Part shown: positions 8,514-61,937 of the stretch, in pieces
Layout of the letters: each line of letters begins with the position of its first letter
How positions within the stretch are numbered: the first letter of the stretch is position 1
DNA from: an uncultured Candidatus Saccharibacteria bacterium
GTDB lineage: Bacteria; Patescibacteriota; Minisyncoccia; Phycocordibacterales; UBA9973
Reading direction: 5' to 3'
DNA length: 64,000 bases
NCBI GenBank assembly: GCA_964591445.1
Contig: CAZQAW010000001.1
Span: forward strand, 14,625 to 78,624
Made by a program: the position numbers and the translations under genes
Notes under the pieces: generated by a model
Told to the model about the DNA's origin: nothing
The model's database searches: none
What the model saw: the letters and a program-made list of their open reading frames with translations, nothing else

Positions 8514-11429
8514 TTACACCGCTACAATGTTAACAAGTCTTCCCTTCACGTAGACTATTTTGACGATCTTTTTGCCGTCAGTCCATTTTTTGATCATTTC
8601 GTTTTCCTGCGCTTTCGATTTGATGATTTCTTCGTCCATGTCTACCGGTATAATGAGTTCCGCACGAACTTTGCCATTTACCTGAAGCGCAATAGTGACT
8701 TCGTCGTCAACGATTTTCGATTCGTCATACTGTGGCCACGTTGAGAGATGGATAGAAGCCGTCTCGCCAAGCTCGTGCCACAGTTCTTCGGCAATGTGCG
8801 GCGCGAATGGAGAAAGGAGTTTGCAGAAAGTAAGGAGATCTTGTTTTGCAATTCCTTCTTCTTTTTCCCATAGGTTGAGTAGAATCATCATTTGGGAAAT
8901 GCAGGTGTTGAATTTATACTCGGCAATATCTTCTGATATTTTTTTGATTGCTTTGTGAAGCGCTTTGCTTGCAGTATCGCTTGTTGTTTTTCCTGCGTCA
9001 TTATTTTTTTCTACAAGCCTCCACACTCGCTCCAAGAATTTTCGCACGCCCACAACTCCATTCGGGTCCCAAGGATAATTTCCTCCGTCTCCATACGGAC
9101 CCATGAATGCCAAATACAATCGCACAGTGTCAGCACCCAAAAGCTGAACCACTTGGTCGGGGTCAATGACGTTACCTTTGGATTTACTCATTTTGTTTCC
9201 GTCCGGGCCAAGAATAAGTCCGCGATTGCGGCGCGCAAGATACGGCTCGGTTTCTTCCACCATGCCAGCATCGTGCATCGCCTTCACCCAAAAGCGTGAA
9301 TAGAGCAAGTGCATCGTTGTGTGTTCTGCTCCACCGAAATACATATTGATCGGCATCCAAGCTTTGCGAGATGCTTTGCTTGCAAATTCATTTTCATTTT
9401 TCGGGTCAAGATATCGATAGAAATACCACGAAGAGTCGACAAATGTGTCCATCGTTTCAACTTCCGGTGTCCAGCCTTCCCCAAAAATATCTGTCACTCG
9501 CTTTTTCAATTCAGCACTGCGAGCAAGCGGCGCAGTTCCGTCTGGAGTATGGTCAACATCTGTTGGCAAAAGCCACGGCAAATGTTCGTTCGGAACTGCA
9601 TGCGCTTTGCCCGCTGGGTCGTACACAATAGGAATCGGCACACCCCAATAACGCTGACGAGAAATTCCCCAGTCGCGCAAACGATAAGTGTTCACCATTT
9701 TTCCACCGACGTGTTCTGTGATTTTCTTTTTCGCTTCTTCAGACGGAAGGCCAGTGAATGTAGCGGAGTCTTCCAGTATTCCACAATCAGTTAAGCACGT
9801 AGTTTTAAATTTTTTCGCATCGCTTGTGGTGTCGTAGCCGAGTTCGATCGCACGAGCTACTGATTCATCCAAAAATCTAATGTAATGTTTCAATCCATCT
9901 TCGTCGTTGTGAGTTTCCCAATATGTTTTTATTTCTTCAGCCGTCTTCCAGCCAAGAGTAAATTTTTCGTGCGCTTCAAGTTTAGTTGGTTTTGTCTGGG
10001 CGCTGTTAAGAATGATCAAAAAGCATTCGGCTCGGGCCGAGCGATTTACCTGTTTAAGTGTATTAAAATAATGCGCATAACTTGATTCGATCCATTCGAC
10101 ATATTTGAAATCATACAACCCACTTTCTTCTGCAACTTCACGCAGAACTCCTTTTTCGACAGATTCTCCATCATCAACCCCGCCCGCAAACAAAAGTATT
10201 TTTCCGTTTTCAAATTCACTCACCGCATATTTCTGAGTTGCTGGATCAAAAATAATTCCAGCACCGCCATTTCGAAATTCTTCGTTTTCTCTCTTCTGTC
10301 CAGTTTCTCGAGCAATCACTTTTTTTATCGGCAAATTATATTTCTTCGCAAATTCAAAATCACGTTCATCGTGCGCTGGCACTGCCATTACCGCACCTGT
10401 TCCGTAATTTACTAACACATAATCTGCAACCCATACTGGCACTTCTTCGCCATTTGCAGGATTAATTGCTTTTATACCCTGGAGCTCTACTCCTGTTTTT
10501 TCTTTTGATTGCTGGCGGTCAAGGTCGGACTTCTTTTTCGACAGAGAAATGTATTTTTCAACTTCATTCCAATTTGAAATACTTTCTTTAAGTTTTGACA
10601 CAAGAGTATGCTCAGGAGACAACACAACATACGTAACACCAAACAATGTGTCAGCACGAGTAGTGAAAACCCGAATACTCTCCCTCTCCTGGCTAGGAGA
10701 GGGCTGGGGTGAGGTTGTAATTTTAAATTCAATCTCGCTTCCTTCGCTTCTGCCAATCCAATTCTTCTGCGCTTCTTTGATATGCTCCGGCCAATCCAAA
10801 GTATCCAAGTCGTCGATCAATCTGTCTGCGTATTTTGTAATGCGGAACATCCACTGGTCTTGATCTTTCTGTATCACTTCAGCACCACAGCGTTCGCAGC
10901 AGCCGTTTGTCACTTGCTCGTTTGCAAGCACCGTTTTGTCTTTCGGACACCAGTTCACTTGCGTTGTTGCGCGATACACCAAATCTTTTTTCAAAAATTT
11001 TGCGAACATCCACTGCGTCCATTTGTAGTAAGATGGATCGCACGTCACCACTTCTCGCGACCAATCAAACGAAGTTCCGATCGAGTAAAATTGCTCGCGC
11101 ATTTTATCCATGTGCGAGTATGTCCACACTTTCGGGTCTTGGCCAAGTTTGATAGCCGCGTTTTCAGCCGGAAGTCCAAAGGCGTCGAAGCCCATCGGGT
11201 AGAGTACATTAAAACCTTTCATTCGTTTGTAGCGCGCATACATGTCTGGAATAGCAAAAGCGTACCAGTGCCCGACGTGCAAATTCCCGGAAGGATAAGC
11301 AAATTCAACCAAAGTATAGAAATTCTCTTTGCCGGTAACGCTATCTTCTACACGGTATACGCCCTGTTCCCGCCAAGCATCCTGCCATTTCTTTTCGATA
11401 TCTTTATGGTTATATTCGCGCTTTTTCAT
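8514..11429 (-). CDS. leuS: Leucyl-tRNA synthetase carrying two insertions: a palindromic-element peptide and a Nudix-box domain.
   Basis: HVGH (HIGH motif), the CP1 editing domain TTRADTLFGVTYVV...AHDERDFEFA, VNTYRLRDWGISRQRYWG, and KMSKSKGN. The protein is 971 aa, longer than the ~860 aa typical of bacterial LeuRS. Confidence 0.95.
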   Translation of the reverse strand: MKKREYNHKDIEKKWQDAWREQGVYRVEDSVTGKENFYTLVEFAYPSGNLHVGHWYAFAIPDMYARYKRMKGFNVLYPMGFDAFGLPAENAAIKLGQDPKVWTYSHMDKMREQFYSIGTSFDWSREVVTCDPSYYKWTQWMFAKFLKKDLVYRATTQVNWCPKDKTVLANEQVTNGCCERCGAEVIQKDQDQWMFRITKYADRLIDDLDTLDWPEHIKEAQKNWIGRSEGSEIEFKITTSPQPSPSQERESIRVFTTRADTLFGVTYVVLSPEHTLVSKLKESISNWNEVEKYISLSKKKSDLDRQQSKEKTGVELQGIKAINPANGEEVPVWVADYVLVNYGTGAVMAVPAHDERDFEFAKKYNLPIKKVIARETGQKRENEEFRNGGAGIIFDPATQKYAVSEFENGKILLFAGGVDDGESVEKGVLREVAEESGLYDFKYVEWIESSYAHYFNTLKQVNRSARAECFLIILNSAQTKPTKLEAHEKFTLGWKTAEEIKTYWETHNDEDGLKHYIRFLDESVARAIELGYDTTSDAKKFKTTCLTDCGILEDSATFTGLPSEEAKKKITEHVGGKMVNTYRLRDWGISRQRYWGVPIPIVYDPAGKAHAVPNEHLPWLLPTDVDHTPDGTAPLARSAELKKRVTDIFGEGWTPEVETMDTFVDSSWYFYRYLDPKNENEFASKASRKAWMPINMYFGGAEHTTMHLLYSRFWVKAMHDAGMVEETEPYLARRNRGLILGPDGNKMSKSKGNVIDPDQVVQLLGADTVRLYLAFMGPYGDGGNYPWDPNGVVGVRKFLERVWRLVEKNNDAGKTTSDTASKALHKAIKKISEDIAEYKFNTCISQMMILLNLWEKEEGIAKQDLLTFCKLLSPFAPHIAEELWHELGETASIHLSTWPQYDESKIVDDEVTIALQVNGKVRAELIIPVDMDEEIIKSKAQENEMIKKWTDGKKIVKIVYVKGRLVNIVAV
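10676..10717. repeat. Copy A of the in-frame palindromic element (actct-ccctctcc-tggcta-ggagaggg-ctggggtgaggttg) inside leuS.
   Basis: Identical 36-nt core to the copies at 31229-31264 and 33731-33766. It forms an 8-bp perfect hairpin ccctctcc/ggagaggg. In the leuS frame it reads [13 protein letters not shown]. Confidence 0.85.
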
Positions 11430-12570: not shown

Positions 12571-13167
12571 ATGACACCCAAACCGAAACAACCATTCAAA
12601 AAGCGCGAGCTTACAGACATCGAGAAAATGTCGATGGCGCTTACTCGTTGGGTCGGCTCGACAAAGTCGCTCGTTGCGCATACTGTATTTTTCGCTGTCA
12701 TGATACTCCTTGCCATTTCCGGTGTCGGTTTTGACAAAGTGCTTCTCATCCTCACAACGGTCGTTTCGCTTGAAGCAATTTATCTTTCCATTTTTATCCA
12801 AATGTCTGTGAACCGCCAAGCTCGCCGACTGCGTGAAGTGTCGCAAGATATCGAAGAGATTCAAGAAGACGTTGAGGAAATCCAAGAAGATGTCGAAGAA
12901 ATTGCCGAGGATGTGGAAGGCATTGAAAAAGATATCGATGAAATCCAAGAAAATGTGGACGAGATTCAGGAGGACGTGGAAGACATTACCGAAGATGTCG
13001 AGGATATTACCGAAGACGTAGACATGTATGAAAAAGAAGAGAAAGTCCGCGATGAAGCGATGATGAACAACATTCAGAACACGCTCGCGGAACTGATGCG
13101 AGAAATTCAAGAATTGAAAGAAAGCAAAGCAAGCAAAACTGTCGTGAAGAAAAAATTGGAAAAATAA
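12571..13167 (+). CDS. DUF1003-like small membrane protein with an acidic heptad-repeat tail.
   Basis: LTRWVGSTKSLVAHTVFFAVMILL and the following TM match the DUF1003 pattern. The C-terminus is about 8.5 tandem heptads, EDVEEIQ/EDVEDIT. Confidence 0.6.
   Translation: MTPKPKQPFKKRELTDIEKMSMALTRWVGSTKSLVAHTVFFAVMILLAISGVGFDKVLLILTTVVSLEAIYLSIFIQMSVNRQARRLREVSQDIEEIQEDVEEIQEDVEEIAEDVEGIEKDIDEIQENVDEIQEDVEDITEDVEDITEDVDMYEKEEKVRDEAMMNNIQNTLAELMREIQELKESKASKTVVKKKLEK
12850..13029 (+). repeat. Tandem 21-nt coding repeat, about 8.5 units (gatgtcgaagaaattcaagaa-like).
   Basis: Direct tandem repeats visible in the nucleotide sequence, encoding (D/E)(V/I)(E/D)EI(Q/A/T)E heptads. Confidence 0.7.
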
Positions 13168-19998: not shown

Positions 19999-21432
19999 TC
20001 AGTCCACTATCGCAATGTCGTCCGCATTTTCTGGTTCGCCTCGTTTTCTTCGTCGAATGTACAAAGTGATGCCGATCGAAAGCGCGAGCATGATTGCAAG
20101 TGTAACAATACTTATTGTAGCAGAACTTCCGCGTGTTTCATCACTTTGTGTATCCACAGCTTGCGCGGAAAGTGGGATTGCTGGAGTGATTTCAGTTTTT
20201 TGTTCTTCGGGAATTTCAGTTGGTAATGAAAGCGAAGACGAAGATGGAGCGCGCGAGGATACGCGCGCTGCCGAAGACCGCGCATTGTTAAATGTAAAAG
20301 CAATCGTTCCATCTTTGCCCACAAGCACAAGCGGCAGTGTATGATCAGCACCGGCAAACCCTGTTACCGAAGCTGCCAAAAACAAACTTTTGCCTGGCAA
20401 AATAATACTATTATACGCAAACGCAAACTGCTTGCTGCCAAGAGAAAGTGACCAGCCGGAAAGATCGAACTCTTTCGTGTCTGCATTTTGCAAAGTAATA
20501 TTCCCTGCTTCGTCAAACGAAGTTATGGCAAGCTTGTGGTCTTCAACCGTAAGGATCACTCGATCGCCAGCATCAGAAGTCGTACTTGCAATATACGGAT
20601 TCATAAAATAATCGAGCGTGACCACATAGTCGCCAGACTTTTTATACGTGTGCACCACTTTCTCATTTGTCTCTTTCATCACACTTGCTCCGTCGCCAAA
20701 ATTCCAAGCGAATTTGCCGCGGCGTATCACTTCACCAGAAGGCGCAAGCACTTTTGGCTCAAACACGACTTCGATATTCGTAATAGCAACTTGCTTCACA
20801 ATCATTTCCGCTGTCATTTTCTGCACCGTTTGCTCGACAGGTTTTTTGGTTACGGGTGTTGTTGGCGTCGTAGAACTTCCACCGCTTCCACCATTTGCAT
20901 TGTCGCCACCTGCGTCAACGTCAGAAGTTGTCGCATTAGTCGCACCAGGAGTCGGCGCTGCTATCACCCAGTTCTCGCCATTTTTCTGCAAGCTTTTACC
21001 TGCACCCGCACCACTTGGGTCGGCAACATACGTCACTTGGTTTACGATAGTATTTGTCGCATCTTTCATCGCCAAGGTCTCACCCGGATCGTTGTTGAGC
21101 GAAAAACTTGAGTCAAAAAGTATACCTGAAAAATTGGGCCAGTCGGTTTTAAATTTTGAAATCGTATCCGCAATGATTGCAAACCCACCAGCTGGAATAC
21201 TTGCCGAGCCATCGGGCACGAGCGAGTGGTTCGTATTGCCTTCGAAAAATTTATACGTCGACAAATCAACAGCAGCTGAACTGGTATTCAACACTTCTAT
21301 CCATTCTCGGTCGGTGTCGGTCCCGTCCAAGTCGTACATGATTTCATTGATAATGATTTCCGCGCGCGCAACAAATGGAAGCGCGCATATAAAACCAAAC
21401 GCTATGAGTTTCTTCATAGCGTTAGTATACAA
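19999..21432 (-). CDS. Lamin-tail-domain (LTD) surface protein with a C-terminal membrane anchor.
   Basis: Signal peptide, then IINEIMYDLDGTDTDREWIEVLN (the canonical LTD start). Gly/Thr-rich linker and a C-terminal TM (IVTLAIMLALSIGITLYI) followed by RRRKR. Confidence 0.75.
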   Translation of the reverse strand: MYTNAMKKLIAFGFICALPFVARAEIIINEIMYDLDGTDTDREWIEVLNTSSAAVDLSTYKFFEGNTNHSLVPDGSASIPAGGFAIIADTISKFKTDWPNFSGILFDSSFSLNNDPGETLAMKDATNTIVNQVTYVADPSGAGAGKSLQKNGENWVIAAPTPGATNATTSDVDAGGDNANGGSGGSSTTPTTPVTKKPVEQTVQKMTAEMIVKQVAITNIEVVFEPKVLAPSGEVIRRGKFAWNFGDGASVMKETNEKVVHTYKKSGDYVVTLDYFMNPYIASTTSDAGDRVILTVEDHKLAITSFDEAGNITLQNADTKEFDLSGWSLSLGSKQFAFAYNSIILPGKSLFLAASVTGFAGADHTLPLVLVGKDGTIAFTFNNARSSAARVSSRAPSSSSLSLPTEIPEEQKTEITPAIPLSAQAVDTQSDETRGSSATISIVTLAIMLALSIGITLYIRRRKRGEPENADDIAIVD

Positions 21433-29435: not shown

Positions 29436-32144
29436 TTATTTCTTCTTCAAAACTTTCTTCAAATATTGCCCGGTGTAAGACTTTGGTGTATTTGCAACTT
29501 CTTCCGGAGTTCCTTTGGCTACCAAATGTCCGCCGCCGATACCGCCTTCGGGCCCAAAGTCGAGAATATAGTCTGCGCATTTTATGAGATCCATGTTGTG
29601 CTCGATAACGACGACTGTATTCCCTTTGTCGACAAGACGGTTCAACACACCGATCAAATTTGCAACGTCATCATAGTGCAACCCGACAGTTGGTTCGTCG
29701 AGCAAGTAAATGGTTTTTTCAATATGAGGTCGATATAGTTCAGAAGAAATTTTCACACGCTGCGCTTCCCCGCCAGAAAGTGTCGTTGCGCTTTGGCCGA
29801 GCTTCACGTATCCAAGCCCGACATCCATGAGAGTTTTCAAGCGGTCATAAATAGCAGGAATATCTTCGTAGAATTTCAAACCTTCTTCAACGGTAAGCTG
29901 AAGAATTTCGTAAATATTCTTTTTCTTGTATTTTACTTTCAAAGTTTCTTTGTCGAAACGCTTGCCACCACACACGTCACACGTCACATACACTGTCGGC
30001 AAGAAATGCATTTCTACAGCGATTTCTCCATTTCCTTCACACGCTTCGCAGCGGCCACCTTTGACGTTGAATGAAAATCGGTTTGATTTCCAACCGCGGA
30101 TTCGTGATTCTTCGCTTTCAGCAAACAAGTCGCGGATAAATGTAAACGCGCCTGTGTATGTCGCAATGTTTGACCGCGGCGTTCGTCCGATCGGAGATTG
30201 GTCAATCAAAATCGCTCGAGACAAATATTCGGTACCAGTAAATGTTGCTGCATTAAAGACCTTTGCGCTACGATATTTGCGTTCAAAACGCGCTTGCAAA
30301 TTTTGGTGTACGATTTCATACATAAAAGAAGATTTGCCGGAACCAGACACACCAGTAATGCACACCAACTTTCCGAGAGGAATTTCAGCATTCACATTTT
30401 TGATATTGAAAGCATGTCCGCCGACAACCTTGAGCGAACCTTTGTCAGAGGTGCGGCGTTTTTCTGGAATAGGAATTCGCACTTCTTCGCGCAAGTACGC
30501 AAGGGTGCGAGATTTTGATGTGTTTGTTTTTGCGGCAAGCAATTTTTCTAAATCATCTTGCACTATCACTTCCCCGCCATGCACGCCGGCTTTCGGGCCG
30601 ATGTCTACCAGATAATCTGACGCGTAAATCGTATCTTCATCGTGTTCAACAACGATAATCGTATTTCCCAAATCTCGCAAATCTTCAAGCGTTTTGATCA
30701 AGCGTTCGTTATCGCGCTGATGCAAACCGATCGTCGGTTCGTCAAGCACGTACATTGCGCCGACGAGGCGTGAGCCGAGTTGTGATGCCAGACGGATACG
30801 CTGCGCTTCTCCGCCAGACAAAGTATTTGCCCGGCGTTCAAGCGCCAGATATTCCAAGCCGACGTTCAACATAAATTGCAATCGGTCTTCAATTTCACGG
30901 ATCACCGGTTTTGAAATTTCTTTTTCTTTTGCAGTCAGTTTAAGCTCGATGAAAAAGTCCGCCGCGTCTTGGATTGAAAGCGCAGTCAAATCTACAATGT
31001 TTGTTTTTTTAGTACCAAGAAACACATTGAGTGCTTCGATACGCAGACGCTTGCCGCCACAAACGTCGCAAGGTTCTGTACCCATAAAATATTTGCTTCC
31101 GAGCCCATTACATTCTGGACAAGCTCCGTACGGCGAGTTGAAAGAGAAAAGTCGCGGCTCAACTTCTGGGAAAGAAAAGCCGTCATTCGGACAAGAGAAT
31201 TTTGCAGAAAGAAGAAACTCTGAACTCTCCCTCTCCTGGCTAGGAGAGGGCTGGGGTGAGGTTGATCCAAATTGTATCGTCACCAAACCTTCACTTTCCA
31301 AAAGTGCGCGTTCGATAGACTCAGCTAAACGCATGCGCGCGTCGGCCGGGTTATCTGCAAATTCATGAAGCGCAAATTCGTCCACCATCACGTCGATATT
31401 GTGCTGCTTTGTTTTTGAAAGTTCGATACGGTCACGCAGATTTTTTATAGTCCCATCAAGTCGAACTTTGCTGTAGCCTTTGCCAAGCAAGTCGTACAAA
31501 AGCTGGTAGTACTCGCCTTTTCGTCCGCGAACCACCGGCGAATAGATCGTAATCGGTGTTTCGCTCCACTGCACTCCCATCACTTTTTTTGAGCCTTTGG
31601 TATTTTTTTTATACGTTTCAACTTTCTCGAGCATGAAATTCAAAATTTCTTCGTTCGAAAGTTTTTTGATTTCTTCGCCGCACTGTGGACAATGTGGCCG
31701 GCCGATACGCGCGTACAGCACGCGCAAATAGTCATAAATTTCGGTAATCGTTGCCACAGTTGAACGCGGGTTGTTCGAGCGAGATTTTTGGTCGATAGAA
31801 ATTGCCGGGGAAAGCCCGGAAATTTCATCAACTTCCGGCTTGCTCATTTGCTTCAAGAATTGTCGCGCATACGAAGAAAGAGATTCAACGTATCGTCGCT
31901 GGCCTTCAGCAAAAATAGTGTCGAACGCCAAAGAAGACTTTCCTGAACCGGAAAGCCCTGTGATCGCGATCATCTTGTTGCGCGGCATCTCAACATTAAT
32001 ATTCTTCAAGTTGTGTGTTCGAGCGCCTTTGACGATAATTTTTCCTTCACTGTCTTTTTTCATATATAAGCCAAGCGCACCCGGCAAGTCTCCTTGAGGG
32101 TGTCTATCTCTCTTTAACTTCTTTAAGTATACCACATATGCCAT
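29436..32144 (-). CDS. uvrA: Excinuclease ABC subunit A, carrying the 13-aa palindromic-element insert.
   Basis: Two ABC ATPase modules: [15 protein letters not shown] / [12 protein letters not shown] / [11 protein letters not shown], and [13 protein letters not shown] / [11 protein letters not shown] / [11 protein letters not shown]. Zinc-finger Cys pairs are present. Confidence 0.95.
31224..31264. repeat. Copy B of the in-frame palindromic element, inside uvrA.
   Basis: actctccctctcctggctaggagagggctggggtgaggttg is identical to copy A over 41 nt. In-frame it reads [13 protein letters not shown]. Confidence 0.85.
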
Positions 32145-32939: not shown

Positions 32940-35099
32940 TTATTTTTCCGGTTCCAACTTTGCGCGTAAAACACTAATCTCGTCGCGAACAATCGCGGCC
33001 GTTTCAAAGTCGAGCTCTTTGACGGCTCTCGACATTTCTTTTTCTTTTATTTTGATGATTTTTTCGTAGACTGCCAAGTTGCGCTCTTCGTCAGAAAGTC
33101 TTGCAAGTTTTTTCTCTTCTTTTTTATCGAGCGCTTTGCGAGCTTTGCCAAGCACTTCAAAATCTATCGCAAGCTCAGCGTTCACCGCTTTTGCATGTTC
33201 AGATTCCATTTGTTCAGTAATGTCTTTGATATTTTTCTTGATCGTTTTCGGAGTAATGCTGTGCTTTTTGTTGTACTCCATTTGCACTGTTCGGCGGCGA
33301 TTTGTTTCGGCAATTGCACGTTCCATCGAGCCTGTCATGTTGTCTGCATACAAAATCACGCGACCCTGCGCGTTTCGAGCTGCGCGGCCGATAGTCTGGA
33401 TAAGCGATGTTTCGCTTCGAAGAAATCCTTCTTTGTCTGCGTCCAAAATGCCGATCAATTCTACTTCCGGCAAATCCAACCCTTCGCGGAGCAAGTTCAC
33501 TCCGACCAAACAATCAAATTCCCCTTTTCGAAATGCCGTCAAAATTTTAATTCGGTCAATTGTTTTAATATCGCTATGCAAATATTCTGATTTTATTTTT
33601 CGCTCTTTCAAATACGCAGCCAAATCTTCCGCCATTTTTTTCGTTAGCGTTGTTGCAAGCACGCGCCCGCCGCCCTTGATATTTGCAACCGCTTCTTCAA
33701 TAAAGTCTTGGACTTGGCCTGGGTAGTTCCCCCTCTCCTGGCTAGGAGAGGGCTGGGGTGAGGTTGATGCAGCCACCGGCTTGAGCGTAATTTCCGGATC
33801 AAGAAGTCCAGTTGGACGAATGATTTGTTCTACTATTTGGTCACTGTTTTCTCGTTCATAGTCGCTCGGAGTCGCTGAAGTATAAATCACTTGGCTTACG
33901 CGTTCTTCAAATTCGTTGTATTTAAGCGGGCGATTGTCTTTCGCGCTCGGCAAACGAAAACCGAATTCCACCAAAGTATTTTTACGAGCCTGGTCGCCAG
34001 CGTACATGCCGTGAAGCTGCGGAAGCGTCACATGCGATTCATCGATCACCACCAAAAAGTCCGCAGATCCATCTTTGTGATGTGGAAAATATGAAAGCAA
34101 TGTTTCTGGCGGCTCGCCTGCTTTTTTACCAGACAAATGTCGAGAATAGTTTTCGATTCCGCTGCAATAGCCGATTTCTTTGATCATCGCCAGGTCATAC
34201 GTCGTTCGTCGTTTGATTCGCTCCGCTTCCAAAAGCTTTCCTTCTTTTTCAAAAAGTTTGAGCTGGTCTGCAAGTTCTGCTTTGATCGCTTTTATTGCTT
34301 TTTCTTTTTTAGTTTCATTTGTCAAAAAGTGTTTTGCCGGAAAAAGGAAAATACTTTCTGGATTGTCGAGAATCTGCGAAGTCACCGGATCAATTTTTAA
34401 AATCTGCGTAATTTTTCCCGCTACGATTTCAATCGAAAGCATAAACGTTTCCGACACTGGCATGATTTCCACTTTATTACCAAGTGCACGAAACTGCCCT
34501 GAAGACAAATCTGCGTTTGTACGCGTAAAATGAATTGAAACTAAATTCGAAAGCAAATCATTGCGCGCCATTTTCATCCCAGGTTTTAATTCCAAATGTT
34601 CTTCGCGATATTCTTCTGGACTTCCCAAACCGTAAATACACGAAACCGACGCAACGATGATGACATCTTTTCTCGTAAGCAAAGATTGTGTTGACGCATG
34701 ACGAAGACGATCAATTTCTTTGTTGATCTGCGCGTCTTTTTCAATATACGTATCCGTCACCGGCATGTAAGCTTCCGGCTGGTAGTAGTCGTAATACGAA
34801 ACGAAATAATGCACCGCATGGTCTGGGAAAAATTCTCGATACTCTTGCGCAAGCTGTGCTGCAAGCGTTTTGTTGTGAGCAATCACCAAGGTTGGCTTTT
34901 CAAATTGCGCAATCACATTTGCAATAGTAAAAGTTTTACCAGTTCCCGTAGCACCAAGAAGGGTCTGCTTTTTCATCCCTTTTTTGAGGCCACTTACGAG
35001 GCCCTTGATAGCCTGAGGCTGGTCGCCATCCGGCTTATATTCGCTTGTAAGTTTGAAAAGCGGCATAGGTATCAGTACATTGTAAGCTATTTTGGGCAA
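32940..35099 (-). CDS. uvrB: Excinuclease ABC subunit B, carrying the palindromic-element insert.
   Basis: LLGATGTGKTFTIANVI (Walker A), VVIDESHVTLPQ (DEAH-like), the helicase C-terminal motifs, and the UVR domain at the C-terminus (ETAAIVRDEISVLRAKL). Confidence 0.95.
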   Translation of the reverse strand: MPKIAYNVLIPMPLFKLTSEYKPDGDQPQAIKGLVSGLKKGMKKQTLLGATGTGKTFTIANVIAQFEKPTLVIAHNKTLAAQLAQEYREFFPDHAVHYFVSYYDYYQPEAYMPVTDTYIEKDAQINKEIDRLRHASTQSLLTRKDVIIVASVSCIYGLGSPEEYREEHLELKPGMKMARNDLLSNLVSIHFTRTNADLSSGQFRALGNKVEIMPVSETFMLSIEIVAGKITQILKIDPVTSQILDNPESIFLFPAKHFLTNETKKEKAIKAIKAELADQLKLFEKEGKLLEAERIKRRTTYDLAMIKEIGYCSGIENYSRHLSGKKAGEPPETLLSYFPHHKDGSADFLVVIDESHVTLPQLHGMYAGDQARKNTLVEFGFRLPSAKDNRPLKYNEFEERVSQVIYTSATPSDYERENSDQIVEQIIRPTGLLDPEITLKPVAASTSPQPSPSQERGNYPGQVQDFIEEAVANIKGGGRVLATTLTKKMAEDLAAYLKERKIKSEYLHSDIKTIDRIKILTAFRKGEFDCLVGVNLLREGLDLPEVELIGILDADKEGFLRSETSLIQTIGRAARNAQGRVILYADNMTGSMERAIAETNRRRTVQMEYNKKHSITPKTIKKNIKDITEQMESEHAKAVNAELAIDFEVLGKARKALDKKEEKKLARLSDEERNLAVYEKIIKIKEKEMSRAVKELDFETAAIVRDEISVLRAKLEPEK
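33731..33766. repeat. Copy C of the in-frame palindromic element, inside uvrB.
   Basis: ccctctcctggctaggagagggctggggtgaggttg is identical to the 36-nt core. In-frame it reads [12 protein letters not shown]. Confidence 0.85.
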
Positions 35100-35635: not shown

Positions 35636-36862
35636 TCAAATACTGTATTTTTTAAAAAAGTTGGCTTTGTATTCCTCAAAATTCCCTTCTACAATGGCAT
35701 TTCTCATTCCTTTGACGAGGTGTACTATAAAATACAGGTTGTGAATAGTCGCAAGGGTTCCACCCAACATTTCCTTCGCCCTAAAAAGATGCGCGACGTA
35801 TGCGCGAGTGTAGTTTTTGCAAGTATAGCATCCGCAGTTTTCTTCGATCGGAACAAACGCTTCTTTGTGCTCCGCATTGAACATGTTTATTTTGCCGGCA
35901 TGAGTATACAAAGTGCCATTGCGAGCCATGCGAGTCGGAGCAACACAGTCAAAAAAGTCGACACCGTTTTCTACACCCATAAATAAATCTTCGGGCTCAC
36001 CAATACCGAGCAAATGGCGCGGTTTGTTTTCTGGCAAAATTTCGTTCACCCATTTGACCGCAGTCGACATATCTTCTTTTGCAAAACTTCCGCCAATACC
36101 GAAGCCGTCAAAATCCATACCGCCGATAAACTCTGCCGACTTTTTTCGTAAAGACTCTTCTCTGCCACCTTGGACTATGCCAAACAATGCTTGCTTGGTT
36201 TTTCTTGATTTATGGAAATCTAAAGACCGTTTTGCCCAAGCGTGCGTGCGATGAAGCGCTTCTTCTTGATATCGAAATGGTTCGGCTGGCGACGTACATT
36301 CGTCAAATGCAAAAATAATATCTGCACCCAAATTCTGCTGAATCTCGATCGATTTTTCTGGAGTAATGTAGTACAAAGTGCCATCAATATGCGAACGAAA
36401 CGAAACTCCGTCCGCGCCAATAGTCGCAAGTTTTGGAACACCTTCGTCTGCGCTTGATCTTTCTGTAATTTGTAAACTTGGATCAATAGCTTTCGTAATT
36501 TTTGAAATATCCTTGCCGTATGCCGCGCCAAGCGAAAACACTTGGAAGCCGCCAGAGTCTGTCATCATCGGGCCTTTCCAATTCATAAACGAGTGGAGTC
36601 CTCCGGCTTTTTGTACGACTTCGTCTCCAGGTTGTAAAAGCAAGTGGTATGTATTTGCAAGCATGACATCTGCGCCAAGCGACTCCAACATTTCGGGAGT
36701 AATAGCTTTGACAGTTGCTTTTGTGCCAACGGGAACGAATGCTGGAGTTGGAATATCTCCGTGCGGAGTGCGGAAGATACCGGCGCGCCCAAGCATGGGC
36801 GCGCCGGTAGTGTCTTCTAATTTCTTTTCAATATCAAAACGGAAGTGCATGTTATTGTTCAA
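35636..36862 (-). CDS. tgt: Queuine tRNA-ribosyltransferase (tRNA-guanine transglycosylase).
   Basis: FRTPHGDIPTPAFVPVGT, LGADVMLANTYHL and the C-terminal zinc site CGCYTCKNYTRAY...H. Confidence 0.9.
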   Translation of the reverse strand: MNNNMHFRFDIEKKLEDTTGAPMLGRAGIFRTPHGDIPTPAFVPVGTKATVKAITPEMLESLGADVMLANTYHLLLQPGDEVVQKAGGLHSFMNWKGPMMTDSGGFQVFSLGAAYGKDISKITKAIDPSLQITERSSADEGVPKLATIGADGVSFRSHIDGTLYYITPEKSIEIQQNLGADIIFAFDECTSPAEPFRYQEEALHRTHAWAKRSLDFHKSRKTKQALFGIVQGGREESLRKKSAEFIGGMDFDGFGIGGSFAKEDMSTAVKWVNEILPENKPRHLLGIGEPEDLFMGVENGVDFFDCVAPTRMARNGTLYTHAGKINMFNAEHKEAFVPIEENCGCYTCKNYTRAYVAHLFRAKEMLGGTLATIHNLYFIVHLVKGMRNAIVEGNFEEYKANFFKKYSI

Positions 36863-59236: not shown

Positions 59237-59265
59237 AAAAAGCAGCGCTTACCGCGCTGCTTTTT
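59237..59265. terminator. Bidirectional terminator hairpin agcagcgc-ttacc-gcgctgct flanked by A and T runs.
   Basis: Perfect 8-bp GC-rich stem, 3' of the DUF559 gene. Confidence 0.55.
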
Positions 59266-59274
59266 CTGGGTTTT

Positions 59275-59296
59275 CCCCTCCTTGGGTAAGGAGGGG
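59275..59296. repeat. 22-nt CT-rich hairpin palindrome cccctcctt-gggt-aaggagggg (left flank of the DUF559 gene).
   Basis: Exact reverse complement of the 59711-59732 copy. Confidence 0.7.
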
Positions 59297-59306
59297 TCGA
59301 CGCGCT

Positions 59307-59693
59307 TCAGGCGCGCGGGGGTGGTAATTTCTGTAGTTCAACCTTTATCCGATCAACTACTGAGGAAAGTTGAGTGAGAATTTCTTTATTACTAAAACGC
59401 ACAACTCTTTTTCCTAAAGATTCAAAATAGACAGTTCGCTTAGTGTCATATTCTTCTGCATCTTTTTCATAATGCTGAGAACCATCAATTTCTATAATGA
59501 GAAATTTTTTAGGACAATAAAAATCTGCAATGTATCCTCCAATACTATGCTGCCTACGAAATTTTACCCCGAGTTTATTATTTTGCAATTGCAACCAAAG
59601 AACCGCTTCTTCATGCGTTCCATGATTTCTGAGTTCTCTTCTTCTATCAACAAATTGAGGAGTGTTGTGAATAATTGGCATACAAGTTACCAA
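59307..59693 (-). CDS. DUF559-family protein (Vsr-like/PD-(D/E)xK endonuclease fold).
   Basis: ...EEAVLWLQLQNNKLGVKFRRQHSIGGYIADFYCPKKFLIIEIDGSQH...KRTVYFESLGKRVVRFSNKEI matches the DUF559 pattern. The start is TTG at 59693, or an internal ATG at 59681. Confidence 0.7.
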   Translation of the reverse strand: MVTCMPIIHNTPQFVDRRRELRNHGTHEEAVLWLQLQNNKLGVKFRRQHSIGGYIADFYCPKKFLIIEIDGSQHYEKDAEEYDTKRTVYFESLGKRVVRFSNKEILTQLSSVVDRIKVELQKLPPPRA

Positions 59694-59710
59694 CCCCAGC
59701 GCAAGCGCTG

Positions 59711-59732
59711 CCCCTCCTTACCCAAGGAGGGG
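59711..59732. repeat. 22-nt CT-rich hairpin palindrome cccctcctt-accc-aaggagggg (right flank of the DUF559 gene).
   Basis: Reverse complement of 59275-59296. Preceded by the GC palindrome cagcgcaagcgctg at 59697-59710. Confidence 0.7.
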
Positions 59733-59741
59733 AAAATTTTT

Positions 59742-61937
59742 TTACTGCACCACAGTAATAGGCACGGAAACGACAGAAGTTTTGTTACTTGCCATGTTTT
59801 TGGCTGTGAGGTTGATGTTGTATGTTCCTGGCGCGATGCTTCCAGATGCAGTTATAGTTGGAAGTTGCGCTGTGCCAAAATTTTCTGCCGCGATGCTACT
59901 CATCGTATACGTAAGCGGGCTTGCAGTCATACCAGACGGAAGTGTCATTGTTACAAGCATGTTCGCAGGCGCGCAGCCGGTGTAGTCGTCATTCCACACT
60001 GTTGGGAAAATCGCAAAACTTGAACCCGGGCCGATGGTGAGTCCATATGAATCTGCATACAAGAATTTTGGATTCTTGCGCACGCAACTTACCGGCGAAA
60101 TACTGACGTTGAATTTGATTGCGCTTGCGGTTTTGGAAGTAATTGGTCCAATAGTAATGCCTGTACGTGGATCAGAAAATGTCCCGGTTGTGCTGTTGAA
60201 AGACGCAGCTTTAATATCATCCGTCCATAAAGAAGACGTTGCGCGAGCATCAAGCATGCGCGCTTGGTTGTAAGGAAGTTGCATGCTGTCGCTGTACGCG
60301 CGAGTAATTATCAAACCATTTTTATTCGAAGAAATAGTACTGTTTGAAAGCATGCTGTCAAACCCTGTCGACTGTCGCCATTCGACATAATACGGAGCTG
60401 TGCCGTTTGCAAGTTGGATCTTCACCGCTTTTTTGCCAGTTGTATTTTCGTACGGAGCAAGGGTGTAATTTCCGCTAGCAGTTGCGGTAATCATATTCGT
60501 ACCATCAAGCCACCCCATCATTTCTTTATAAAACGCATTCGTATGAAAACCGTATCCGCGCTGGTCTCCCATGATGTCAAAAGGATTTCCGTATTCTTTG
60601 TGCGTACAAGTTGCGCTCTGCCCCATGCTTGCCGTGTCGAGCGTTGTCGAGCCACAGTCGTATCCATTTGCATGCCACCATCCTAGTCCATGTCCAACTT
60701 CATGCGTTACCATCGAGTCCAAGTTTGTCCAAGAAAATGTTGGGGGAGTGGAAGTAGACCACATCGAATTCTGCAAGAAGTTTGCACCAGAGCCATTTAC
60801 CCACGAAACGGAAAGAGTGTAGACTTGGTTGTTGATGAAAATAGGTGAAGCGCCAACAAATGCCGAACCTTTTGCGTATCCACCCGAGCAGTTCGTAATA
60901 ATGAGCACATGCTGATAGTTTGCAAGATTGATCGATTGCGAAGTGATATAAGAATCAAGATCACCTCCCCAACCAAGACTTGGGTTTTCGCAAGAACCTG
61001 TGGTACGTGGAATCATGTACCACCCATATACATCACCGCTAAAAGAAATACCACCGTAGGATTGTTCGTTGTAGAAGTTTTTGAATTGTCCAGAGAAAAT
61101 TTTGCTTTGCGCAACAGCGGTTGTAAACGGCGTAGTTGTTGCATCAGAATAATGTGCCAAGATGACGAGCATTTTGTGCGGCACGGCAACACGAGTACCA
61201 TCTTCCCCAACTTGTGCAGACATGCGCGCCGGGGTGTTTCCTTGTCGAGTAATGTCTCCTATCAAGTTGTCATCGAGCTGCAAGCCTTTGACCGTTACTT
61301 CGGTACCAGGCGCGACAGAGATCGGTTGCGTCGGATAAAACTTGTAACGCTTGTTGCCATTTACTATTTGATATTGAAAATCAGCTTCATGTTCCTTTAA
61401 ATTCATGAAATCTTCTTGGTGAAACACAACGAGCGTTCCGGTTACCGTTTTTGGTTCTTCGTAGAGGCCTTGTGCTGCGTCTGGCAAAAGTGAACGTGTA
61501 AGAAGCGGAAGCGCATATGCGCCGACCATTTTTGGATTTTCTTTGAGCATTGCAAGCAAGACTTTTTTGCGTTCAGCCAAAACGTTGAAAATATTTTTCT
61601 CGGCTTGCTGCTTGAATTCTTTTTTCGCAAAGACGGATTTGGAATTGTAGTTGATGCCATTTTTCAGAAGCTCGTGGTTCATCTCGTGCACGTATTTTGG
61701 AGCTTCAGTTGCGCGGTTCTCGCTTGCAAGTACGGCTTGAGTTGCAGCTGCAGAGATCTGTGAACTGTCTACCGTTTTGTCGACTTTTGCAAATGCAGCT
61801 TTGAGAGTTGTGATAAACTTTTGGAAACCGCTTTGTTCAACCTGTGCAGTTTCTTGTGCAAATGCTTGATAATCGAACACGCCAAACGCTGCCACAAACG
61901 CGATGGCAAGCACAAAAAGAGGTACGTATTTTTTCAT
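59742..61937 (-). CDS. Secreted metzincin-type zinc metalloprotease with a C-terminal beta-rich region.
   Basis: Signal peptide MKKYVPLFVLAIAFVAAFGVF. HEVGHGLGWWH gives an exact HExxHxxGxxH metzincin motif. 731 aa. Confidence 0.7.
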   Translation of the reverse strand: MKKYVPLFVLAIAFVAAFGVFDYQAFAQETAQVEQSGFQKFITTLKAAFAKVDKTVDSSQISAAATQAVLASENRATEAPKYVHEMNHELLKNGINYNSKSVFAKKEFKQQAEKNIFNVLAERKKVLLAMLKENPKMVGAYALPLLTRSLLPDAAQGLYEEPKTVTGTLVVFHQEDFMNLKEHEADFQYQIVNGNKRYKFYPTQPISVAPGTEVTVKGLQLDDNLIGDITRQGNTPARMSAQVGEDGTRVAVPHKMLVILAHYSDATTTPFTTAVAQSKIFSGQFKNFYNEQSYGGISFSGDVYGWYMIPRTTGSCENPSLGWGGDLDSYITSQSINLANYQHVLIITNCSGGYAKGSAFVGASPIFINNQVYTLSVSWVNGSGANFLQNSMWSTSTPPTFSWTNLDSMVTHEVGHGLGWWHANGYDCGSTTLDTASMGQSATCTHKEYGNPFDIMGDQRGYGFHTNAFYKEMMGWLDGTNMITATASGNYTLAPYENTTGKKAVKIQLANGTAPYYVEWRQSTGFDSMLSNSTISSNKNGLIITRAYSDSMQLPYNQARMLDARATSSLWTDDIKAASFNSTTGTFSDPRTGITIGPITSKTASAIKFNVSISPVSCVRKNPKFLYADSYGLTIGPGSSFAIFPTVWNDDYTGCAPANMLVTMTLPSGMTASPLTYTMSSIAAENFGTAQLPTITASGSIAPGTYNINLTAKNMASNKTSVVSVPITVVQ

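Follow-up and report, generated by a model that had tools for sequence, protein, structure and literature searches.

The subject of this work is a small cassette in the genome of an uncultured Candidatus Saccharibacteria bacterium, in which a gene of the nuclease family DUF559 is bracketed by two inverted copies of a hairpin repeat. It lies in a stretch of 64,000 nucleotides of contig CAZQAW010000001.1 (positions 14,625 to 78,624), and this whole stretch is referred to here as the window. The original prediction for the locus, made from the sequence letters, had described two 22-nt palindromes on either side of the gene that are exact reverse complements of each other down to the loop, and this proved correct, with CCCCTCCTTgggtAAGGAGGGG standing on the forward strand at the left end and its exact reverse complement, loop included, at the right (Table 1). 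The window holds these two matches against 0.00 expected (100 shuffles), and no further copy was found in it even when three mismatches or a free loop were allowed. Each palindrome is the first module, the hairpin core, of a composite element of about 50 nt whose pyrimidine and purine arms enclose a loop of 4 nt and are followed by a small GC hairpin, the linker, and by a G-rich tail mirroring the purine arm; the elements stand in inverted orientation, and their tails point inward and lie nearest the DUF559 gene. These tails, GGGGTGGTA and GGGTTGGTA, had gone unmentioned in the original prediction, and two of its details need correction: the GC-rich hairpin assigned to the left palindrome (agcagcgc...gcgctgct) lies outside the cassette and is of terminator type, the true counterpart being CGCGCttcagGCGCG on the inner side, and the GC palindrome on the right (CAGCGCttGCGCTG) does not overlap the TTG start, which lies at 59693 within the neighbouring G-rich tail.

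When the tails were compared with the purine arm AAGGAGGGG by the third-strand rule (G.G, A.A or T.A), GGGGTGGTA agreed at 9 of 9 positions and GGGTTGGTA at 8 of 9. Both sides have a perfect 9-bp stem and a 4-nt loop, inside the ITxF limits (arms of 6-15 nt, first loop of 1-6 nt), and on both the third block runs antiparallel with at most one mismatch to G.G:C, A.A:T and T.A:T, as ITxF prescribes. The linkers, at 21 and 14 nt, are longer than the 1-6 nt that ITxF gives for the second loop; they are mini-hairpins with adjacent ends. Folded as single-stranded DNA with ViennaRNA, which does not model triplexes, the left element (59270-59330) reached -18.6 kcal/mol (z -5.7) and the right one (59682-59737, - strand) -14.7 kcal/mol (z -4.7). 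From its block order and triads the composite element is predicted to fold, on one strand, into a purine-motif intrastrand triple helix (G.G:C, A.A:T, T.A:T).

The open reading frame between the elements (59307..59693, - strand), which had been proposed as a 128-aa DUF559 gene, does match Pfam DUF559 (PF04480; E = 1.5e-32, 112.2 bits against a cut-off of 20.6, profile positions 5-108 of 109), and a Pfam search of the protein returned DUF559 and REase_MTES_1575 alone. The TTG start, on the other hand, could not be upheld: homologues (57-61% identical) begin at the equivalent of MPIIHN, that is at ATG 59681, which leaves 124 aa. The stop codon TGA (59309-59307) belongs to the loop of the linker hairpin on the left, and the protein accordingly ends in translated repeat sequence, KLPPPRA (the last seven codons before the stop). 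Many homologues have N- or C-terminal extensions of translated repeat, e.g., PPPTPSLKRRG. Residues D57, E68, D70, H74, R99, N102 and E104, of the catalytic type of a Vsr-like PD-(D/E)XK nuclease, are invariant in 20 homologues. The nearest solved structure is PDB 3HRL, the N. gonorrhoeae protein NGO0050 (E = 8e-20). Escherichia coli YcjD is 40% identical, and since the YcjD equivalog model NCBIfam PRK09767 gave 73.2 bits against a cut-off of 218, the window protein is, judged by sequence, a relative of YcjD and not its equivalog. A defence-system gene was considered, for which PADLOC gave weak domain-level matches alone (E = 1e-4 to 3e-3), to nuclease domains in mREase_II, DpdF and HEase. A Logan assembly includes an identical contig of 4 kb (locus L121, where 2558-2965 corresponds to window 59307-59693), but the gene is uncalled in this public assembly and the protein is therefore missing from the protein database. 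This is a problem of annotation, in which the ends of an open reading frame are read from repeat sequence, and small genes embedded in repeats may be systematically under-annotated.

Table 1. Coordinates of the cassette, of the adjoining hairpin and of the intragenic 36-nt elements in the window
Feature	Position	Strand	Basis
Left (gene-downstream) element, hairpin 1: CCCCTCCTT-GGGT-AAGGAGGGG	59275..59296	+	
Left element, linker mini-hairpin CGCGC-ttcag-GCGCG (CGCGCttcagGCGCG)	59301..59315	+	
Left element, G-rich mirror tail GGGGTGGTA	59318..59326	+	read from sequence
Right (gene-upstream) element, hairpin 1: CCCCTCCTT, loop GGGT, AAGGAGGGG	59711..59732	-	
Right element, linker mini-hairpin CAGCG-CTTG-CGCTG (CAGCGCttGCGCTG)	59697..59710	-	
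Right element, G-rich mirror tail GGGTTGGTA, holding the spurious TTG start	59688..59696	-	read from sequence
DUF559 (Vsr-like PD-(D/E)XK) gene, 124 aa from ATG 59681	59307..59681	-	Pfam PF04480
Intrinsic-terminator-type hairpin AAAAAGCAGCGC-ggtaa-GCGCTGCTTTTT, flanked by A5/T5	59237..59265	-	terminator scan; fold -14.9 kcal/mol, z -6.1
36-nt element in leuS: CCCTCTCCT-ggct-AGGAGAGGG-CTG-GGGTGAGGT-TG	10682..10717	+	insertion relative to PDB LeuS
36-nt element in uvrA, identical	31229..31264	+	12-aa insertion relative to PDB UvrA
36-nt element in uvrB, identical	33731..33766	+	17-aa insertion relative to PDB UvrB, between KPV and GQ

Hairpins and DUF559 genes across bacteria

Eighty homologue loci were picked from metagenomes by protein similarity alone (45-59% identity), their flanking DNA being disregarded, and all perfect hairpins with an all-pyrimidine 5' arm and a stem of at least 7 bp were collected as a class from every locus that was fetched (410 distinct hairpins). 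A hairpin of this class lies within 150 nt of the DUF559 gene at 71 of the 80 loci, upstream at 60, downstream at 47 and on both sides at 36, and hairpins reach a density of 6.15 per kb beside DUF559 against 0.11 per kb elsewhere on the same contigs, i.e., 56 times as much. The commonest architecture is that of the window, with the tails toward the gene on both sides (15 loci), while the opposite inverted arrangement was seen at 6 loci and inverted doublets upstream at 7 and 6; flanks pointing in the same direction are nearly absent, and two-sided elements are almost always inverted. Dispersed copies share the arm core with the gene-flanking copies of their own contig in 18 of 33 cases, as compared with 7.7±2.2 for random contig pairs.

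Mirror tails characterise the whole class. For each hairpin a full-length mirror block was sought within 55 nt, i.e., the purine arm read backwards with G facing G and either A or T facing A, and in this antiparallel register the tail was perfect in 68% of the 410 hairpins and had at most one mismatch in 92%, whereas the corresponding values were 13% and 34% in the parallel register, 0% and 10% with shuffled flanks, and 10% and 56% with swapped arms. There are at least 28 arm types, each with a mirror tail of its own (for example GAGGAGGGG with GGGGTGGTG, AAGAGAGGG with GGGTGAGTT, and AAAGGGGGG with GGGGGGATT). The tail has G at 2246 of the 2283 positions facing an arm G; at positions facing an arm A, T was counted 766 times, A 241 times, and C or G 60 times. 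Such pairing follows the code of a purine-motif (reverse-Hoogsteen, antiparallel) triple helix, and that T most often stands opposite A agrees with the G-rich strand and not with a pyrimidine-motif triplex on the complementary one. Linkers between arm and tail fall into two size groups, one of 2-5 nt (peak at 3) and one of 12-24 nt; those of the longer group are themselves hairpins, highly varied in sequence, with a stem of at least 4 bp in 67% (15% when shuffled) and of at least 6 bp in 31% (0% when shuffled), and such a hairpin, by joining its two ends, meets the need of the fold-back geometry.

A second scan started from the hairpin and not from the gene, using the pattern CCCCTCCTTNNNNAAGGAGGGG in one genome per species, and found it in at least 120 stretches from many phyla against about 9 expected for its 18 specified bases (a rough estimate for uniform base composition). 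Six of the 120 matches listed have a DUF559 gene within 130 nt, with composite flanks in Pontibacter, Hymenobacter, Cytophagales and Pyrinomonadaceae (Bacteroidota and Acidobacteriota); among the matches listed DUF559 is the sole neighbour gene family that recurs across phyla beside CCCCTCCTT..AAGGAGGGG hairpins, and the GGGT/ACCC loop of the window does not appear among them. Ordinary terminators, or chance palindromes, around an ordinary gene would be the plainest account of such hairpins, and a terminator scan does list 59711-59732 (+) beside 59237-59265. This account is nevertheless very improbable, the shuffles with no match expected, the 56-fold enrichment at DUF559 genes, the conserved mirror tail and the scarcity of T-runs (on either strand in 66 of the 410 class hairpins) together contradicting it; the original prediction, which generic terminators would have refuted, withstands this check. 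In the window itself no T-run follows on the transcribed strand, as the - strand continues with CAGCGC... and AAAACCC... after the palindromes, and recurrence of the same 18 specified bases across phyla likewise argues against this account.

At loci L134, L137, L139, L144, L149 and L150 tail-to-tail inverted doublets stand about 60-130 nt upstream of the DUF559 start, pairing two arm subfamilies, CTCCTCC/GAGGTGGT and CCCCTCCTT/GGGGTGGT, across a spacer of 9-17 AT-rich nt. At these loci the ATG follows 7-19 nt after the purine arm AAGGAGGGG, which may act as ribosome-binding site, and the C-rich strand resembles the 3' end of 16S rRNA.

Vsr-like homing endonucleases exist, e.g., I-Bth0305I, and DUF559 could be a homing-type selfish gene whose product cuts empty inverted doublets and which is copied into their centre by repair, in which case the repeats would be target and not cargo. 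The place of the window gene exactly between two inward-pointing tails, the gene-less tail-to-tail doublets beside homologues, the presence of two DUF559 genes at 4 of the 80 loci, and the weak PADLOC matches to a homing endonuclease model would all suit such a gene. Many homologues, however, have elements on one side only, or doublets beside and not around the gene, DUF559 is usually single within about 10 kb (and single in its contig at 76 of the 80 loci), and the spread of the repeats would be left unexplained, so that homing appears unlikely to us.

Protein matches accompanied by hairpins also came from a plasmid collection, which includes mis-filed chromosomes: in Deinococcus on both sides, in N. 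gonorrhoeae (a relative of PDB 3HRL), and in Sinorhizobium as a downstream doublet; a cyanobacterial DUF559 gene has related G-run hairpins. The gene itself is rare among both plasmid records (35 of 72,556) and phage records (3 of 50,697), and carriage by either was rejected. The searchable literature, outside which most subscription journals lie, yielded no link of DUF559 or YcjD with hairpin, repetitive extragenic palindromic (REP), BoxC or triplex repeats.

The pairing was also followed in E. coli, where Holder et al. (2015; PMC4666352), in their work on intrastrand triplex motifs in prokaryotes, described TM_ECO or BoxC (CCCTCNCCC N3-6 GGGNGAGGG N3 GGGNGAGGG), with 23 copies in MG1655, five as inverted pairs, and 3610 in 262 proteobacterial genomes; they demonstrated triplex formation in vitro and tied the motif to genomic instability. 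In MG1655 (NC_000913.3 1351200-1351420) a TM_ECO copy lies about 170 nt downstream of ycjD and a degenerate hairpin extends across the ycjD stop codon. Of 5426 complete E. coli genomes 3377 have the gene and 2049 lack it, and in phylogroups B2, D, E and F, except sequence types ST69 and ST182, its place is taken by the eefRABCD operon (PMC12817139). In a spread sample of chromosomes TM_ECO-like places numbered 17-33 where ycjD was present (median 22, n = 37) and 2-20 where it was absent (median 8.5, n = 22; Mann-Whitney p = 5e-10). Strains IHE3034, UTI89, CFT073 and similar ones we take to be of phylogroup B2. Published counts of TM_ECO are 1-2 in these strains, 11 in O157:H7, and 19-30 in K-12, B, HS, 55989, IAI1 and W (PMC4666352). 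By analogy with what has been reported for REPINs, the E. coli counts are consistent with decay of the repeat after loss of the enzyme, without being decisive.

Setting of the cassette and further elements in the window

Around the cassette all genes lie on the - strand, in the order trmD, metzincin-like protein (59742..61937), DUF559, membrane protein of 242 aa, rpoB and rpoC. The cassette is placed between the stop codon of the metzincin-like metalloprotease gene and the hairpin at 59237-59265, which is outside the cassette, of ordinary terminator type, and probably the terminator of a metalloprotease transcript that now covers DUF559 too. No strong promoter was found before the DUF559 gene, and this position between stop codon and terminator makes it likely that the cassette is expressed by read-through.

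Five related lineages, in which the metzincin is 65, 57, 57, 53 and 49% identical, keep the order trmD-metzincin-(hypothetical)-rpoB and have at the position of the cassette a gap of 4 nt, 2 nt, 140 nt or about 180 nt, or a tRNA-like sequence. DUF559 is absent at this locus in all five, and no class hairpin was found in about 44 kb of their non-redundant sequence; the cassette is a lineage-specific insertion at this site, and synteny of the gene is not conserved, the outcome on which the original prediction had depended. In a closer relative, whose metalloprotease is 97% identical, all similarity ends directly past the stop codon and the contig stops 30 nt beyond that codon; a different class hairpin, CTCCCCTgcgaAGGGGAG, lies 8 nt past the same stop codon (locus L122, 7755-7772). 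The site may be a hot spot, or this relative may hold a different cassette. It has a further class hairpin, CCCTCTCCTcgtcAGGAGAGGG, in an intergenic region (L122, 1619-1640). Where the metalloprotease is 65% identical the tRNA-like sequence occupies the cassette gap (L123, 8200-8300; L124, 9720-10061), and a nearby variable segment in one such strain encodes bAvd, an accessory protein of diversity-generating retroelements. For the 242-aa neighbour the protein database gave no homologue besides the protein itself.

These comparisons bear on whether DUF559 might be a housekeeping enzyme that removes harmful triplexes or hairpins for the host, the repeats accumulating beside it through locally favoured insertion or instability. 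Triplex repeats have been linked to genomic instability (Holder et al., 2015), and the gene is chromosomal and seldom found on plasmids and phages, both in favour of such a role. In relatives without the repeats, however, this locus is also without the gene, which is not syntenic, E. coli B2 lineages thrive without ycjD, and neither the tight inverted bracketing nor an open reading frame that ends inside the element is well explained by hitch-hiking, and we rate this explanation as rather improbable.

The window also holds three identical 36-nt elements, CCCTCTCCTggctAGGAGAGGGctgGGGTGAGGTtg, within leuS, uvrA and uvrB (Table 1), all in the same frame and encoding the same 11 residues, the length of 36 nt preserving the reading frame. 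The linker is here 3 nt and the tail matches the purine arm at 9 of 9 positions. The likeness between the palindromes and the ccctctcc/ggagaggg element of these genes, which had been pointed out from the sequence, is therefore real: the 36-nt elements are a second subfamily of the same triplex-type repeat class. Elements of the triplex type are able to insert in frame into essential genes, and the identity of the copies suggests recent activity of the class in this genome. Rickettsia palindromic elements are known as in-frame repeat insertions in protein genes. The 36-nt element resembles them in being inserted in frame, in three essential genes, and in adding a short peptide, and differs from them in being much shorter, unrelated in sequence, and of triplex-type instead of long-palindrome architecture.

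Two strongly GC-rich perfect palindromes were seen within coding regions of the sequence (43% GC), TACCGGCGCGCCCAagcaTGGGCGCGCCGGTA with a 14-bp stem at 36778-36809, near the N-terminus of an open reading frame (…TTGAPMLGRAGI…), and AGCGCGCGaggataCGCGCGCT at 20248-20269. A long open reading frame contains, at 12847-13014, 21-nt (7-codon) tandem repeats GA(T/C)(A/G)T(C/G)GAAGA(A/G)AT.. that encode an acidic D-I/V-E-E-I heptad-like repeat.

A possible partnership of nuclease and repeat

On balance we lean towards the view that the pairing of DUF559 with triplex repeats is a general partnership, functionally analogous to that of REPINs and RAYTs, in which the nuclease would cut the element and repair would maintain or multiply it. 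The DUF559 nuclease would recognise the element once folded, most plausibly while the DNA is transiently single-stranded, and would make its cut there or close by; the elements would then be maintained and occasionally multiplied, as singlets, as inverted doublets and sometimes together with the gene, through recombinational repair or gene conversion that draws on other copies. Of the original prediction of a repeat-bracketed and possibly selfish cassette, the bracketing stands and is joined by the pairing across phyla, while selfish mobility stays putative. A wider proposal, which we put forward as possible and more tentatively, is that stand-alone DUF559 proteins, YcjD and the 3HRL protein included, are structure-specific nucleases that read an intrastrand DNA triplex and maintain or propagate BoxC/TM_ECO and the whalefall-1-like repeats discussed below.

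Several points weigh against such a partnership. The nuclease activity of DUF559, its recognition of the triplex, and selfish mobility are all inferred, and a PD-(D/E)XK nuclease cannot by itself transpose DNA. No target-site duplication was found, the outer flanks of the cassette (...GGGTTTT and AAAATTTT...) being inverted (TTTT/AAAA) without any direct repeat, which speaks against an insertion sequence or a miniature inverted-repeat transposable element. No perfect hairpin was found at 9 of the 80 homologue loci. The 36-nt copies (arm AGGAGAGGG) belong to a subfamily other than that of the DUF559 flanks (arm AAGGAGGGG), which counts against a simple picture of one enzyme and one repeat in the window; for the source genome the copy count covers 64 kb. 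The empty relatives, with only 49-65% identity in the protein next door, give no filled and empty pair at nucleotide resolution. Finally, the E. coli difference is mainly one of phylogroup B2 and some genomes without ycjD keep 19-20 copies, so that it is confounded by phylogeny.

If the partnership is real, it would be a second one between repeat and enzyme of the REPIN-RAYT kind, with a different enzyme and a non-B DNA signal. Triplex repeats (BoxC/TM_ECO) have been catalogued since the 1990s and linked to genome instability, an associated enzyme or route of spread being previously unreported, and the nuclease family DUF559 occurs very widely and has a solved structure but no assigned function; the pairing offers a candidate explanation for both gene and repeats. 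The idea is directly testable in E. coli, where K-12 has ycjD and 23 TM_ECO copies and lineages naturally without ycjD are available.

Comparison with known repeat systems

As regards the enzyme, Vsr and the Vsr-like homing endonucleases are of the same DUF559 fold family, with a small stand-alone protein and conserved acidic and histidine residues in common. The DUF559 gene described here differs from them in having no Dcm partner and no intron or intein context.

On sequence grounds the window elements belong to one class with TM_ECO/BoxC, that of the purine-motif (class II) intrastrand triplex repeats (Hoyne et al., 2000; PMC4666352). The blocks follow in the same order on one strand, i.e., pyrimidine arm, loop, purine arm, second loop and G-rich mirror block, under the same triad rule, and both occur as singlets and inverted pairs with high identity among copies. 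The consensus is not shared: the window flanks have CCCCTCCTT/GGGGTGGTA where TM_ECO has CCCTCNCCC/GGGNGAGGG, so that arms CCCCTCCTT/AAGGAGGGG depart from it, and the intragenic CCCTCTCCT ggct AGGAGAGGG ctg GGGTGAGGT is close to it without matching the pattern. The second loop, of 3 nt in TM_ECO, is a GC mini-hairpin of 14-21 nt in the window; TM_ECO is always intergenic whereas the sister subfamily lies here within coding sequences; and while neither transposase or integrase remnants nor any associated mobility gene were found near TM_ECO (PMC4666352), the window elements bracket a DUF559 gene.

The Rfam motif whalefall-1 (RF01762; Weinberg 2010, PMC2864571) was described as a non-coding RNA known from whale-fall metagenomes alone. 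It consists, like the window elements, of two hairpins, the first CT-rich (CuCuCC/GGaGaG), and then a tail, CAGgGuGAGGAC, which is likewise a mirror of the purine arm. Assignment to an Rfam family was rejected, as no match reached its gathering score and whalefall-1 alone came up below it, aligning over the whole model with both DUF559 flanks, inward, at 19.9 and 12.9 bits against 37. These two inward matches, together with the purine arm found 7-19 nt before the ATG in several homologues, could be taken to mean that whalefall-1-like transcribed hairpins control the translation or mRNA stability of DUF559 in cis, e.g., by sequestering a Shine-Dalgarno-like AAGGAGG arm. We think this quite improbable, given that the scores are below threshold, that no whalefall-1 member was found at gathering score in 17 related loci, that the elements stand both up- and downstream of the gene in either orientation, that others are dispersed far from it and within leuS, uvrA and uvrB, and that the mirror-tail rule fits a purine-motif triplex. 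Such triplexes are favoured in DNA and disfavoured with RNA strands. Unlike whalefall-1 as described, the window elements point to a repeat at the level of DNA, used in both orientations, and the 'RNA' motif itself can be recast as a likely repeat of this kind.

The partnership that we favour has its closest parallel in REPIN-RAYT systems, in which the RAYTs are REP-associated tyrosine transposases (PMC3116915, PMC3337134). In both, a small and usually single gene is flanked by inverted hairpin repeats, copies of the repeat also lie dispersed, singly or as inverted doublets, the subfamily of the dispersed copies matches the flanks of the gene within a genome, and the gene is rare on plasmids and phages. 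The repeats themselves are different, as the GTAG/CGTC-tagged palindromes of REPINs have their place taken by homopurine/homopyrimidine hairpins with a mirror tail. The enzyme is different as well, DUF559 being a Vsr-like PD-(D/E)XK nuclease and not an HUH/Y1 (IS200/IS605-like) transposase, and the chemistry of copying must differ accordingly; because the enzyme is of another family, the DUF559 pairing would work like REPIN-RAYT without being a member of it.

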